The notes beneath the pieces were generated by a model, which had not been told where the DNA came from, did not search any database, and saw nothing but the letters and a program-made list of their open reading frames with translations. A program made the position numbers and the translations under genes. A stretch of 63,442 bases of DNA, filler included, from Globobulimina sp. (taxonomy: Eukaryota): NCBI GenBank assembly GCA_003354225.1. It is 32 parts of 32 records of this genome, joined end to end, with 100 filler letters (N's around TTAATTAATTAA, not from the genome) between each part and the next. Parts side by side here need not be neighbours in the genome. Positions count along the whole stretch, not along the records: positions 33,771 to 35,655 come from PIVH01010906.1; 31 more parts are not named here. One strand, 5' to 3'. Positions 10,529-61,458 of the stretch are shown here, in pieces (the stretch's first letter is position 1; the number at the start of each line of letters is the position of its first letter).

Positions 10529-10620
10529 CTGGGTAACGTGTTTCCAAAAACAAAGTTTTTCACGTCTCGGGAACACTTCCCTTGGCGTGAAAAACTGTGT
10601 TTTCAGAAACGCGTTCCCAG
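10529..10620. repeat. 92-bp imperfect palindrome (hairpin/MITE) upstream of MUS81
   Basis: CTGGGTAACGTGTTTC...AGTTTTTCACG pairs with CGTGAAAAACT...GAAACGCGTTCCCAG, with a GGGAA-cac-TTCCC centre. Confidence 0.7.
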
Positions 10621-12250: not shown

Positions 12251-12589
12251 TCAAAATTGTTTTGTTTTGTTTATTAGGATGCAAATAACTTGTTAAACAT
12301 ACATAGATTTGGGCTGTCGACTGTGATTTTCTACGTATCAATCCATGTGGAACCATTCCTAATTCTGCCATTATAATGTTAGTGAGTCACAAAGCTTCAG
12401 AAGGATGTTTTTATTTTTTTGCATTATAAATTTATAAAGTATTTTATAGTCAGTTCCTTGAAAAGTCAAGAGTCATCACCATGTAAAGAACATGAAAAAT
12501 TCTTATCAATGCTTTTATTTACTCTTGAATTAAATTGTTTTCTTCAAAATCAAAAACAGTAAACTGACAGAAACTTAGCATTATACATC

Positions 12590-13809
12590 ATGGCAGTATG
12601 TAATCCCTGTACTCACCACTGATATTTCTAAAATCCAAGTAACTCATACACCCGCACAGGACGCCGAACTCACAGTTCGCTACAACGACAAAGTCAAACT
12701 AACCGATGGTGGTCAAGGCTCAGTAAAATATATCGGTTCAGTAGTCGGAAAAGACGGTGTATTTTACGGTATAGATTTAGTGAAAGGTAAAGGCAAAAAC
12801 AACGGAACTACCCAAAAAGTAGTTTATTTCAAGACTCGTGGCAATAAAAAATCAGGCAAATTTGTTCGTAAATCCGCCTTTAAAAAAGCCACCAAAACTG
12901 AACACTCCGTCACCTTTACATATGGCGATGCAGTCAGTGTGAAATCCAAAGGAAATGGCATTGTTCGCTTTGTCGGCATACCAGCTTTCAGCAAAGTGCC
13001 CAAACCAATGTACGGCGTGGAATTAGATGATCCCAAAGGAATTTGTGATGGTACAATTAAAGGATTTACGTATTTTACGTGCAAACGCAAATATGGAGTG
13101 TATGTGGAACAAAATAAAGTCTCTGCCGGCAAATCGAGGCAGACTGGCCAAGGTCCCTCGGATGTGGATGATGTAAAAGAGGATAAACCGAAAAAGGCTA
13201 AAAAGGGTAAAAAAGCTAAAAAAATTAAAACACCGGTCCCTAAAAAGGGCAAAAAAGCTAAAAAAATCAAAACACCGGTCCCTGAGCCTGAGCCTGAACC
13301 CGAACCGGAACCGGAGCCCGAACCAGAATATGAACCTGAGCCTGAGCCTGAACCTGAACCTGAACCTGAAATTGAGCCGGAACCTGAGCCTGAGGATGAA
13401 CCTGAAGAGGAAGAACAAGCAGCAGATGAAGAGCCAGAGCAAGAGGTAGAACCGGAGGAGGATGTGGAGGAAAACAAGCAGGATGAACAGGACGATAATA
13501 AGGATGATGAAGATGTAATTTCTATGTTTCCATAATTTATGGATTTGGATATGTGTTATATGTAAAATAATATGCTTTTTTGTTGTAATATATATATAGT
13601 TGGATAAGACAGATGATATTACGGAGGATTTAGTGGTTGATTTTTTGAAGGCAAATTATAAAGTGTCTGGCTCGAATGTAGTGTCACCACATGTTATAGC
13701 AAAGAAAATTATGATATCGCAAGGTGTGCCGGAGACACAATTCCAATTTCATTTAAATCAATTGGGCAAAGTTACGTATTGGATTGTTAACAATGTAACC
13801 TCTACATTT
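12590..13809 (+). CDS. Tandem CAP-Gly domain protein with a PE-repeat acidic linker; introns 12596-12659 and 13515-13599; 3' partial
   Basis: Two CAP-Gly motifs (GSVKYIG...YGIDL..GKGKNNGT and GIVRFVG...YGVELDDPKGICDGT). Both GT-AG introns preserve frame. Confidence 0.85.
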
Positions 13810-33060: not shown

Positions 33061-34204
33061 TTAATTAATTATAATAACATAGAAACAGTTGAAGCCTTAC
33101 TCTGAAAACTTGCATTTTAAAACCGGACTTTACACACACACAACTTTGCCGTTATTGGTATTCTAAGATAATGTGAATAAAAAACAGTAAACGATATATT
33201 CCAAAAGATAACCCCCACCCTGGTCGATAAGTTGTATACATTTTATTCAATTATCTGAGAATTCGAAACTTTGCAAATCCAGAAACGGTTTTCTATAGGT
33301 TTGTTCTGTGTTTGTTATAACTTTTTCTTGGGTTTGCAAATCCAGAACAAAGTCAGAACAAATTTATAATTGAATTTTCGGTATACTTTTATATAATTAT
33401 CAACAGCGAAAAGAATTAATATTCAAAATGAATAACGATGCATGCCGAATGTGAACATAATCTGCGCAAAAAGGAAGGAAAATAGGTTAATAATAAAATG
33501 TTAATGGTTCCCGATGAAACACAACCTTCAATTTTGACTTTCAATGTTTTCATTTTGAATAATCTGTAAAAAACTGTAAATTCAAAGAGTTTACAGTAAA
33601 AACAGTAATTTCAAACTGAAAAGCAAAAAGTTAAATGTTACCTTTAACATTTTATTATTAACCTATTTTCNNNNNNNNNNNNNNNNNNNNNNNNNNNNNN
33701 NNNNNNNNNNNNNNTTAATTAATTAANNNNNNNNNNNNNNNNNNNNNNNNNNNNNNNNNNNNNNNNNNNNATTTTACGTAACGGAATAACGAAAGCGAGA
33801 GTGGCTACGATAGAATTCATAAAATCTATAAATGAACATACGATAACAAAGCGTAATTCCCATGTTTTAAAGGCGCAAAATGAGATATGGCAAGAAATTT
33901 CGGAGCCATCCAATAAATCTAAAACAAGGTTGTATGTACAACTGAAACAATATACTGTTGTATGTACAAGTTTATAAATATTTTGTCCATATGACCTTAT
34001 ATCGTTTCTATCTGACAGTATAGCGTTGTCATATGACAGTATATTGTTTCTATTTGTCCCTATTGTGTTTGCAAATTAATGGTATTTACGGCACAATTGG
34101 TACAAAGACAGACGCTCTACTTTAAGGTTTGCCGTACGTATTTCTGGTTTCTTGCCATATGTTTAACTTTTTAGTGCTTCTCAATGTTGAAATACTAATC
34201 ACAA

Positions 34205-35302
34205 ATGCATGATTACTGTGGTTTGAGAAATCCAGTGGACCATCAACATGGTAGCAATCACAGTGATTTTGAGCCTATTTGTTGGGATGAACGCGGAAAT
34301 ACTTTTTTTCAAACATCGACGTATTTATCATCACATTTTGCAATCGATGCACGCTGTGTTGATATAACAAATATAAATGGTAGCAAATCAGGACATTGTT
34401 TTAAACATAAATGCATTGACTACGACCCAATAAATAATATCTATAACGCAGTGCGTATAGAAATTAATGTGACTGTAATTAATTCATCACAGATTATTAC
34501 ATGTTATCGCAATCAATCATTAATGTCGGTAAATGTTTCTGTTTCAGTTGGGAGACATTTTATTATTAATTGTCCAAATATCGATGCAGTTTGTGGTACT
34601 TCATTGAAACCATTTGAATGTTTTTGGGGATATTATAATAATGATTTGAGACAATGTATATGTTCCGTTGGATATATTGGCGAGAAATGTAATATTAAAA
34701 ATATAAATGTAAGTGCTCCAACAGCACAAATAGCAGCAACCCACTCTCCAACAACAGCAACGATTTCCCGATTCTGTATACATTGGTTGCCAATCATTCA
34801 TGCAATGTTTCAGGGTGAATATATTTCGGATGGGCTGTATGAAGCCTATCCCGCTTATATCCATCATGTAAGTGAAAATATTTCGACATTTTTATATTTT
34901 TCAAGAGCAGATTCTCGTTGGCAACTTACGAAAAATAAAGATCGTTTTGAACAAAGTAATTATGATTATACTGGATATTGTGAACAATATGGGGTTGGAG
35001 GTGTTGCGCAGATTGAAACATGTGAGAATTGGTATTTTTTTGATGGAGTTGGGTTTGTAAAAGAGAAAATTGTTTATGATCCAAGTTGTTATTTTTGGGA
35101 AACAATAGATCCGACAACAAATCCAAATCAAACTACAACATCATTGCCGATATCATCAGCAACAACAAGCATTATAATTGGCAGCGACGTTGTAACTGAA
35201 CCCACTGAAACTGCAGTTGGCATAGCAAATATTCAAACTCTTTCAATAGTAAAAATATTCTCAGTATTATCGATATATTTGTCTTTAATTTATAATTTTT
35301 AA
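34205..35302 (+). CDS. Leishmanolysin (M8)-like C-terminal Cys-rich region + EGF domain + S/T stalk + GPI/TM-like tail, last exon
   Basis: DYC...ARC...HCFKHKC...CPNIDAVC, then CICSVGYIGEKC, then a hydrophobic C-terminus. Confidence 0.55.
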   Translation: MHDYCGLRNPVDHQHGSNHSDFEPICWDERGNTFFQTSTYLSSHFAIDARCVDITNINGSKSGHCFKHKCIDYDPINNIYNAVRIEINVTVINSSQIITCYRNQSLMSVNVSVSVGRHFIINCPNIDAVCGTSLKPFECFWGYYNNDLRQCICSVGYIGEKCNIKNINVSAPTAQIAATHSPTTATISRFCIHWLPIIHAMFQGEYISDGLYEAYPAYIHHVSENISTFLYFSRADSRWQLTKNKDRFEQSNYDYTGYCEQYGVGGVAQIETCENWYFFDGVGFVKEKIVYDPSCYFWETIDPTTNPNQTTTSLPISSATTSIIIGSDVVTEPTETAVGIANIQTLSIVKIFSVLSIYLSLIYNF

Positions 35303-35323
35303 ACAGATACAAAATAATGCAAG

Positions 35324-35358
35324 AAAAAAAAAATAATAGTAAAGCCCGACGCGGAAAA
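35324..35358 (-). terminator. Pol III oligo-T terminators (T4 at 35355-35358, T10 at 35324-35333)
   Basis: These are the first T runs downstream of the tRNA on the minus strand, and they occur only after the hairpin. Confidence 0.55.
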
Positions 35359-35362
35359 CATA

Positions 35363-35458
35363 ATATGCCGAGAGGCCGGACACAGACACGTGCTCTACCC
35401 ATCTGACAGGTTATTCAGATTGGTATAGCACGTGCGGGTATCCGGCCTCTCGGCATAT
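35363..35458 (-). ncRNA. 96-nt hairpin (44-bp stem, 8-nt loop) directly 3' of tRNA-Ala; candidate pre-miRNA/shRNA-like RNA
   Basis: Arms ATATGCCGAGAGGCCGGA...ATCTGA and TCAGAT...TCCGGCCTCTCGGCATAT. It has two G-U pairs on the tRNA strand and is followed by T4 and T10 runs. Confidence 0.55.
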
Positions 35459-35530
35459 GGAGAACCCGGGTTTCGATCCCGGTGCCTCAACGTTGCTAAC
35501 GTTACGCTCTTCCGATTGAGCTAGTCCCCC
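35458..35530 (-). tRNA. trnA: tRNA-Ala (AGC), eukaryotic type
   Basis: GGGGGACTAGCTCAATCGGAAGAGCGTAACGTTAGCAACGTTGAGGCACCGGGATCGAAACCCGGGTTCTCCA folds into a cloverleaf with a G3:U70 identity pair, AGC anticodon and ATCG T-loop. Confidence 0.95.
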
Positions 35531-35755
35531 AATAACATAGTCGTTATTTTTCTGAACATATCCTTGCATTCAAACCAATATAAACACATCAACTTAATAC
35601 TATTATGCAATCATGGGATAAACAAAAAACATAAAAATACATAACGTCGCATAATNNNNNNNNNNNNNNNNNNNNNNNNNNNNNNNNNNNNNNNNNNNNT
35701 TAATTAATTAANNNNNNNNNNNNNNNNNNNNNNNNNNNNNNNNNNNNNNNNNNNN

Positions 35756-57836: not shown

Positions 57837-59474
57837 TCAAAGTAAATTCGCCAACGACACATATTTTATTCCATTCCATAAAGCTTTATCACCATTCTTG
57901 GATTTCCCACCAATTACAATATTATCAATCAACCGCGTGGATGGCCCAACCGATGCAGCAATACTTATCACCATCTCATTATTTTTAATAAATTTAATTA
58001 AATCAAATGTATTATTTTCCGTCTCTTTCAATTTCGCTCCATTCCGTGCATCATGAAACGAAATATATTCTAACTGAATCTGATATTTCTCCGCGAATTT
58101 CTCACCAATCTCTTGCATATATTTGATACCAATAACATCCTTATCGTTTATTTCTAAATTATCAAATAAAAAACTTGCAATCATACACAAACATTGATAG
58201 ATCAATGGCGCTCTTTCCCTTTCTGCCATACTTAATTTACTATTCATTGAAGACATCGCCAAGCCATCCAATTCACGGACGGTGTCATGAATAATCACTT
58301 GTGTGTCGGGGAAGAATTGCAAGCCTAAATTCCTTATAATTATACATTGCATAAAATCTTTCTGCCCAAATATGGATTTATGAGGCCGTACCCACGAAAA
58401 TAATTTCGTAACCACAGTGCCGACCCCTTTAAAATGCCCAGGCCGCGAATGTCCTTCATCGCAGTCTGACGATTCTATATTTTCAAAGTCTACAAAGGCA
58501 CCAAATAATTTATCCTCGTTCTTATTCGTTTCCTTATTATAATTTGGATACATATCGGTCACACTGGGCGTAAATATAACATCTACGCCCAATTGCGTCA
58601 ATTTATAAATATCGTCGTCCATATTATACGGATAATTGACATAATCCTTCAACTCATTGAACTGCAACGGATTTAAAAACAAACTGCACCAAATTTGATG
58701 AGTAGATTCATATTTTTTTGCTGCTTTGATCAGTTCCAAATGGCCACAATGCAAACCACCTAAAAACGGCACAAAAACTATCTGTTTCCGATGCTCATAT
58801 TCATCGCATAAATCATTTCGTAAACTCCGTATTTCAAAGGCGGATTTTATAATTTTCGTATACTTTTTATCTCTTTGCGAGGGCAATAACTGTCGAAACC
58901 TTTCAATTCTATGCGGATCTCCTTCGGTTTCCGTGTCACAATGATAATATTCATGCCCTTCCTTGATTTTATTAAAGAATTGGCCACTTTCAATATTTAG
59001 CGACTGCCATATTTCATGGTCACTGCACAATTTCTCCCTGGTTTTATCATTTAAATAATACGAATGCTGCGGTGATGGGAATATGCCACCTTTAACATCG
59101 CCAATGTAATGACTGATGGCAGACACGATGGACGGTGCTAAATTTGTGTACTGCTTCACAAATTTATATGTTTCATTCGCGGGATGACCCAAACCTAACA
59201 TGTCATGCCATACTAAGACCTGTCCATTGCAATGAGGGCCACTACCAATTCCTGTGCGGTGCAGTGGTGCAGTGCACACAGAAACGCTTTATAACATTTG
59301 TATGCATAATGCATGGAAACACATACCGATGGTTGGTATTTCTAATAACTCTGTGATGTATGCAGCTGTTTCAGCGCATACCTTCTCTAACACTAAAAAG
59401 GAGGCACCGCAGTCTTGCAATTTCAACGACTGTTCTGCCAATTCCTTTATGTCGCGATAGGTTCGACCACGAGT
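57837..59474 (-). CDS. panB-panC: Fused ketopantoate hydroxymethyltransferase (PanB) - pantothenate synthetase (PanC); intron 59252-59326; 5' partial
   Basis: GASFLVLEKV...IPTIG/IGSG..CNGQVLVWHDMLG (PanB), in frame with GGLHCGH, NPLQF, RPGHFKGV, FGQKD and DGLAMSS (PanC). Confidence 0.9.
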
Positions 59475-61352: not shown

Positions 61353-61458
61353 TAGAGGTGTGCACGGGCCGGCCCGGCCCGGCCCGTAAAAAGCCCGGGC
61401 CGGGCCTTTAACATTTTCCAACGGGCCGGGCCGGGCCTGGATTTTGGGGGTCGCGGGA
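61353..61458. mobile_element. Left end of a hAT-like element with GGCCC subterminal repeats, truncated
   Basis: TAGAGGTGTGCACGGGCCGGCCCGGCCC... abruptly GC-rich. Confidence 0.55.

Follow-up and report, generated by a model that had tools for sequence, protein, structure and literature searches.

A tRNA-Ala(AGC) gene of Globobulimina sp. that runs directly into a long hairpin: palindromic insertion or tRNA-driven small-RNA gene?

In a contig of Globobulimina sp., the last base of a tRNA-Ala gene is at the same time the first paired base of a long hairpin. The question raised by this locus is whether the two form a dedicated unit in which the tRNA drives the production of a small-RNA precursor, as proposed in an earlier note on this DNA, or whether the hairpin came to lie there for reasons of its own. 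The window, i.e. the whole stretch of DNA that was analysed (63,442 bases), is an artificial join of 32 contigs of 1884-1887 bp each, arranged in size order and separated by identical linkers of 100 nt composed of 44 N, TTAATTAATTAA, and another 44 N (for example at 33671-33770 and 35656-35755). Because of this artificial joining, genes lying on the other contigs are not neighbours of the tRNA-hairpin locus; open frames or apparent palindromes that span linkers are artefacts, and gene order across linkers has no meaning. The contigs have a GC content of about 33% and code for usual eukaryotic proteins (Sec23/24-like, NOGCT, Ysc84, CAP-Gly, CRAL-TRIO, and RNase T2). Among these, the CAP-Gly domain protein (12579-13535, plus strand) carries a long Glu-Pro repeat tail encoded by 12-nt tandem units at 13269-13430. 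Besides, a single frame at 57837-59288 on the minus strand contains, in this order, the C-terminus of ketopantoate hydroxymethyltransferase (PanB) and the whole of a pantoate-beta-alanine ligase (PanC), which suggests a PanB-PanC fusion protein. The contig and the tRNA gene at issue are the following.

33771-35655, no strand assigned: real contig with the tRNA-hairpin locus (1885 bp; outside it lie linker and unrelated contigs)
35458-35530, minus strand: tRNA-Ala(AGC) gene, 73 nt, with G3:U70 and the discriminator A73 at 35458 (ARAGORN, Rfam RF00005, minimum-free-energy cloverleaf)

The tRNA-Ala gene is normal and canonical. ARAGORN places a tRNA-Ala(agc) at 35457-35531 on the minus strand, the sole tRNA in the whole window, and the Rfam tRNA model RF00005 matches 35458-35530 of the same strand along its entire length (positions 1-71 of 71) and scores 52.5 bits (E 9.9e-10), the gathering score being 29; this upholds the intact tRNA-Ala(AGC) described earlier at 35530-35458. 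The anticodon is AGC, and the Rfam alignment sets G3 opposite U70 in the acceptor stem, the G3:U70 pair being the identity element of tRNA-Ala. The T-loop reads AUCGAAA, unlike the commoner type UUCGAAU.

The hairpin that follows can be divided into these parts.

35415-35458, minus strand: 5' arm of the hairpin, 44 nt, whose first base is the tRNA discriminator (inverted-repeat detection, folding)
35407-35414, minus strand: loop, 8 nt (inverted-repeat detection, folding)
35363-35406, minus strand: 3' arm of the hairpin, 44 nt (inverted-repeat detection, folding)
35441-35458, no strand assigned: outer 18 bp of the stem, perfect complement of 35363-35380, candidate terminal inverted repeat (pair count; exact 17-mer on both strands)
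35456-35457, minus strand: TA directly 3' of the discriminator, possible target-site copy (sequence; matching TA at 35364-35365)

The whole hairpin measures 96 nt (35363-35458), the discriminator A at 35458 being its first paired base, and the anatomy reported for it at the outset, namely a 44-bp stem with 4 mismatches and an 8-nt loop that starts at the discriminator, was found again with arms at 35363-35406 and 35415-35458. On the tRNA strand, the 44 stem positions consist of 38 Watson-Crick pairs, 2 G-U pairs, and 4 mismatches; on the plus strand, where both G-U pairs become C-A, they consist of 38 Watson-Crick pairs and 6 mismatches, so that the pair count agrees with what had been stated about these two positions. 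Across all 32 contigs, this is the top-scoring hairpin, with a score of 26 versus 18 for the runner-up. The latter, located at 10535-10615 just upstream of an open frame starting near 10591, has a stem of about 30 bp with 4 mismatches, a 21-nt loop and 42% GC, and its sequence is unrelated to that of the tRNA-linked hairpin.

Folding of both strands, which the earlier note had called for as a check, gives a strong stem each way. Taken alone, the hairpin reaches -71.4 kcal/mol on the tRNA strand (z -11.7) and -65.4 kcal/mol on the plus strand (z -11.6), and in both cases 0 of 200 shuffles did as well. The difference of 6 kcal/mol between the strands, out of about 70, is due to the same two G-U pairs. 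These had been taken as a weak pointer to folding as RNA in the tRNA orientation, a view that does not stand: under neutral substitution, with half of the changes being transitions and either arm being hit at random, the chance of finding at least 2 of 6 wobbles on the named strand is about 0.47. A bias of this size therefore has no statistical weight and is no evidence for either direction.

Beyond the hairpin, two T-runs are encountered on the tRNA strand.

35355-35358, minus strand: T4, first candidate Pol III terminator, 4 nt after the hairpin (it starts at the 5th base)
35324-35333, minus strand: T10, second candidate Pol III terminator, 29 nt after the hairpin (it starts at the 30th base)

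No TTTT is present within 35363-35458 on either strand, and the sequence confirms the initial description in which no T run separates the tRNA from the hairpin, with a T4 lying 4 nt and a T10 about 30 nt beyond it. A transcript of 176 nt, running from tRNA position 1 to the T4, has as its minimum-free-energy structure a clean cloverleaf followed by the hairpin. Since the hairpin is free of TTTT and the transcript folds in this way, read-through by Pol III is plausible, and the hairpin is probably transcribed together with the tRNA. A scan of the contig for bacterial promoters and terminators returned counts at shuffle level, the models being bacterial and irrelevant to a eukaryote. With both parts on the same strand, no T4 between them, and a T-run afterwards, the anatomy fits the class of tRNA-driven Pol III hairpin units.

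Small RNAs made from tRNA-driven hairpins do exist elsewhere, as had been pointed out for a virus, and are documented in a virus (PMC4337559) and also in cells (PMC3547838). The cellular case is milR-4 of Neurospora crassa, which is co-transcribed by Pol III with tRNA-Ala genes and requires RNase Z, whose cut at the tRNA 3' end makes the 5' end of the precursor (PMC3547838). The likeness with the present locus is close, both being cellular and combining a real tRNA-Ala with a downstream hairpin-forming precursor and a T cluster after it. However, the mature strand of milR-4 lies between two tRNA-Ala genes and the star strand after the second, whereas the present locus has one tRNA and a compact hairpin of 96 nt; moreover, transcription, RNase Z dependence, and QDE-2 association of milR-4 were established by experiment (PMC3547838), whereas the present locus is known from its sequence.

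The viral case is that of the TMERs (tRNA-miRNA-encoded RNAs) of murine gammaherpesvirus 68 (MHV68), which are Pol III transcripts made of a tRNA-like module and miRNA hairpins, processed by RNase Z, and ended by T-run terminators (PMC4337559). They share with the Globobulimina locus the order of a tRNA-shaped promoter module, then a stem-loop part (pre-miRNA stem-loops in the TMERs) and T-runs. Yet the TMERs are viral and their tRNA-like part is not aminoacylated, whereas the tRNA here is a canonical tRNA-Ala of which other organisms have identical copies; in addition, there are eight TMER units, each bearing one or two hairpins of shorter length, in contrast to a single cellular locus with a 44-bp stem.

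A third parallel is provided by engineered tRNA-shRNA cassettes, in which constructs without a linker after the discriminator are reported to work, with tRNase ZL deduced to cleave after the discriminator (PMC1885648). As here, the hairpin comes directly after the discriminator and a Pol III T-run follows, and the reported working of linker-free constructs supports the view that such a junction can be processed. These cassettes are nevertheless artificial and bear 21-bp stems against a chosen target, whereas the present stem has 44 bp, 4 mismatches, and no known target. Finally, tRNA-led dicistronic Pol III genes are represented by plant tRNA-snoRNA and Yarrowia tRNA-5S rRNA genes (PMC2566860). 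Their tRNA promoter likewise serves an adjacent downstream RNA that is freed by tRNA 3' processing, but the partner there is a functional snoRNA or 5S rRNA found at many loci, and not, as here, an anonymous hairpin at one locus.

From these parallels, a dedicated tRNA-driven small-RNA gene can be envisaged at this locus, in which the tRNA-Ala would act as Pol III promoter and RNase Z signal, and the hairpin would be diced to siRNA- or miRNA-like regulators. The exact start of the hairpin at the discriminator, the absence of a T4 between the two together with the T4 and T10 afterwards, the folding of the 176-nt transcript as cloverleaf and hairpin, and the mechanism known from milR-4, the TMERs, and the linker-free constructs all speak in its favour, and such a gene may also be a domesticated MITE. 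On the other hand, folding is much the same on the two strands, the G-U bias lacks significance, no complementary target of the hairpin longer than 11 nt occurs in the 60 kb of the window, the 4 stem mismatches bear no sign of compensatory upkeep in the single copy at hand, and what is known of such a gene here is its anatomy. A small-RNA function for the hairpin is possible; a dedicated gene of this kind is considered rather doubtful. The fuller scenario, in which a free-living eukaryote would have turned a palindromic insertion into a natural tRNA-shRNA gene, with RNase Z freeing a 43-bp hairpin and Dicer making regulatory or defensive small RNAs from it, is regarded as unlikely.

The surroundings of the same tRNA in other DNA and RNA samples bear directly on this question. 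In an index of sequencing runs, the best share was 0.22 of 23 words (about 5 of 23), and 4 of the 24 runs listed (X1, X9, X7, and X16) were examined; these comprise seawater and marine RNA libraries, with two named organisms among them. The tRNA-Ala(AGC) is 100% identical in all four, one of the contigs concerned being 120 nt long with a depth of 626, but the shared stretch is limited to 35455-35534, the run contigs parting from the sequence of the window on either side of the gene (at 35455-35457 and at 35530-35534). The hairpin was met in no run of the index, the share being explained by the tRNA alone in the 4 runs examined of 24; in particular, the match in the two RNA runs examined (X7 and X16) covers the tRNA and not the hairpin. 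An extra piece of 33 nt in X7 (35311-35343, 3 differences) falls on an A/T run and was discarded as low-complexity sequence.

In all three contexts with a visible 3' flank, the identical tRNA is devoid of a hairpin, the fourth contig ending inside the tRNA. What follows the gene in these three is unrelated sequence that begins with TA; some bases further on, and no more than about 20 nt away, comes a T12, T4 or T5. These contexts show the usual design of the gene, a TA after the discriminator and a close T-run, with the reservation that the copies may come from other loci or other species. As the window has one tRNA and 0 of the 3 other contexts has the hairpin, the joint arrangement of tRNA and hairpin did not recur, which counts against the dedicated small-RNA gene. 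The hairpin being absent beside the identical tRNA elsewhere, it is not a conserved partner of this tRNA, and this was counted in favour of an insertion. The comparative data point to a lineage-specific insertion, although, owing to the possible origin of the copies from other loci or species, insertion here rather than loss elsewhere is something that we infer.

The reading that is preferred, with a probability of roughly one half, takes the hairpin for a palindromic insertion of the MITE-like or foldback sort, its RNA being a by-product of read-through. An element of 92-96 bp, inverted-repeat over its full length, would have entered an ordinary tRNA-Ala(AGC) gene at the TA next to the discriminator, and would thereby have parted the gene from its original T-run terminator. 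The internal promoter of the tRNA would still drive Pol III, which, as the insert contains no T4, would read through to the T4 (35355-35358) or the T10 (35324-35333) and yield a predicted transcript of about 176 nt or more. A cut by RNase Z after A73 would then release a normal tRNA-Ala and, as a by-product, a 43-bp hairpin RNA with its 5' end at 35457 and a U-rich 3' tail. That it lies beside the tRNA would be a matter of chance, governed by the few places at which a crowded contig can accommodate an insertion.

Several observations argue for such an insertion. The hairpin has a GC content of 54%, compared with 32.5% for the remainder of the contig, and is thus foreign in composition. When 35366-35455 and one TA are removed in silico, the sequence becomes tRNA-TA-TTATG-TTTT, with a T4 lying 7 nt after the discriminator; this restoration of the normal gene design, as seen in the contexts from the other runs, was counted for insertion. 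All six non-Watson-Crick positions fall at stem positions 19-38, the probability that six random positions would spare the outer 18 being 0.033, and a perfect outer stem with all defects internal fits constrained terminal inverted repeats. The near-equal folding of the two strands, together with the non-significant G-U bias, was also counted on this side, as were the plausibility of read-through and the lack of an Rfam family for the hairpin.

The structural features of MITEs are present, namely terminal inverted repeats, small size (96 nt), and no coding capacity. MITEs and foldback elements, for example those of the Stowaway or Tc1-mariner type with TA duplication, are likewise small, non-coding, and built as an inverted repeat over their full length; the likeness extends to termini that are the best-kept part, TA on both sides, and a foreign base composition. 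The TA (or ATAT) that borders the hairpin on both sides is itself palindromic, however, and could equally well be the AT-rich end of the stem. MITEs differ from the present case in that multiple copies are their defining property, whereas one copy was found here in the sequence searched and its TA is inseparable from the end of the palindrome. A literature search on MITEs read through from tRNA genes, judged in part by titles, yielded nothing pertinent, and the printed record may hold more.

Two points weigh against the palindromic insertion. The position exactly at the first base after the discriminator is one of about ten TA sites in the spacer, so that the exact abutment, which a functional unit predicts, would arise by chance about once in 10. 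Besides, the searches met the hairpin as a single copy, so that its mobility is putative. No second copy of the hairpin exists within the 60 kb of assembly in the window. A metagenome scan with the terminal 17-mer gave 83 stretches, with a single match in each of the 80 listed and not a hairpin-like pair, and BLAST of the whole hairpin against all 83 found matches of at most 24 nt, i.e. chance matches; a viral scan with the terminal pattern gave 6 loci, again with a single match each. To our knowledge, the hairpin termini resemble no nameable transposon end. As for the Rfam result, which was counted in favour of the insertion, no family reached its gathering score over the hairpin, and the 16 matches at E<=10 are to generic long-stem or miRNA models on both strands, the best being mir-3149 with 33.6 bits against a gathering score of 100.

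The Rfam tRNA model is not among these 16 matches at E<=10. At a finer scale, the loop-proximal 20 nt of each arm (35387-35406 on the minus strand and 35415-35434 on the plus strand) match a phage tRNA-Thr(TGT) at 19 of 20 positions, over tRNA positions 11-31, a stretch that comprises the D-arm and the first part of the anticodon stem; this tRNA-Thr occurs in two phage contigs (L090 and L091). A shuffle test of this likeness is circular, the tRNAs having been retrieved with that very pattern. The likeness is a lead at most, according to which the palindrome may have its origin in a sequence that resembled a tRNA or bore an A box.

Small GC-rich palindromes are present elsewhere in this AT-rich assembly, as is apparent from a repeat-rich contig (59970-60840 and 61371-61440) that carries tandem G-rich units of 8-9 nt (of the GGGGAA / GTGGGAAT type), a unit of about 48 nt that is present four times and closes with a small GGCC-TTCG-GGCC hairpin, AGTCATGAA and GTCAGGGGA words at scattered places, and, at 61371-61406, a (GGGCC)n palindrome. 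This contig looks like a transposable-element or satellite region.

That the hairpin is the only copy in everything searched would also be expected of a local, non-mobile palindrome, i.e. an inverted duplication formed beside the tRNA by template switching or hairpin-primed repair, and since decayed to 86% complementarity, with neither function nor other copies. Arms that differ at 6 of 44 positions are what an old neutral duplication would give. Conversely, a hairpin with 54% GC in a background of 32.5% is unlike a duplicated local spacer, and the sparing of the outer 18 bp by the defects (P = 0.033) was likewise counted against it. Derivation of the hairpin from the adjoining tRNA was considered and rejected, 292 of 500 and 463 of 500 shuffles scoring as well. 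A local origin of this kind appears, on balance, rather doubtful.

The divergence of the arms bears as well on an artefact of assembly or amplification, such as a chimera with inverted halves arising during whole-genome amplification. Multiple displacement amplification is known to create palindromic junctions, and the assembly consists of many small fragments. In artefactual chimeras of this kind, one half repeats the other exactly, yet here 6 of 44 positions differ between the arms, a loop of 8 nt with a sequence of its own separates them, and unique sequence runs on at both sides. An artefact is accordingly given very little credence.

On its other side, the hairpin faces a gene on the opposite strand.

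34199-35302, plus strand: convergent open frame (P0001), 367 codons, Cys-rich, with a hydrophobic C-terminal tail; its stop is 60 nt from the hairpin, and it is not part of the unit

The hairpin could then belong to this convergent gene, either as a structure of its 3'-UTR or as a two-way block between Pol II and tRNA transcription. It lies 60 nt past the stop codon of the 367-codon frame, folds on the plus strand at -65.4 kcal/mol, and occupies most of the space between the two converging genes. This explanation nevertheless leaves the exact abutment to the discriminator unaccounted for, and the open frame offers no homologues for comparison: it belongs to no Pfam family and has no homologue at E<=0.001 among the near-length candidates drawn from 5.8 billion proteins, weak EGF-like look-alikes from oomycetes (0.76) being all that appeared. 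The taxa suggested by protein look-ups were weak or mixed, namely Oomycota for P0001, and Ciliophora, Chordata, and Rotifera for a Sec24-like protein of the window. We know of no precedent for a 44-bp GC-rich stem as a eukaryotic mRNA 3'-end signal, and a role of the hairpin in the convergent gene is deemed improbable.

As regards the meaning of the locus, fungal and viral precedents exist, and even the best case would therefore bring no new principle. If a tRNA-shRNA gene is truly at hand, it would represent in a cell what the TMERs are in a herpesvirus, and would capture a Pol III small-RNA gene at its birth from a mobile palindrome beside a tRNA gene. If small RNAs are made from it, a biogenesis that depends on RNase Z and is independent of Drosha would reach another eukaryotic lineage, and the locus would offer a natural template for tRNA-shRNA design. 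If the hairpin is a palindromic insert and nothing else, it would be a small curiosity, showing that a tRNA gene can tolerate an insertion ahead of its terminator; such events would automatically create tRNA-hairpin transcripts, the raw material from which units like milR-4 could arise.
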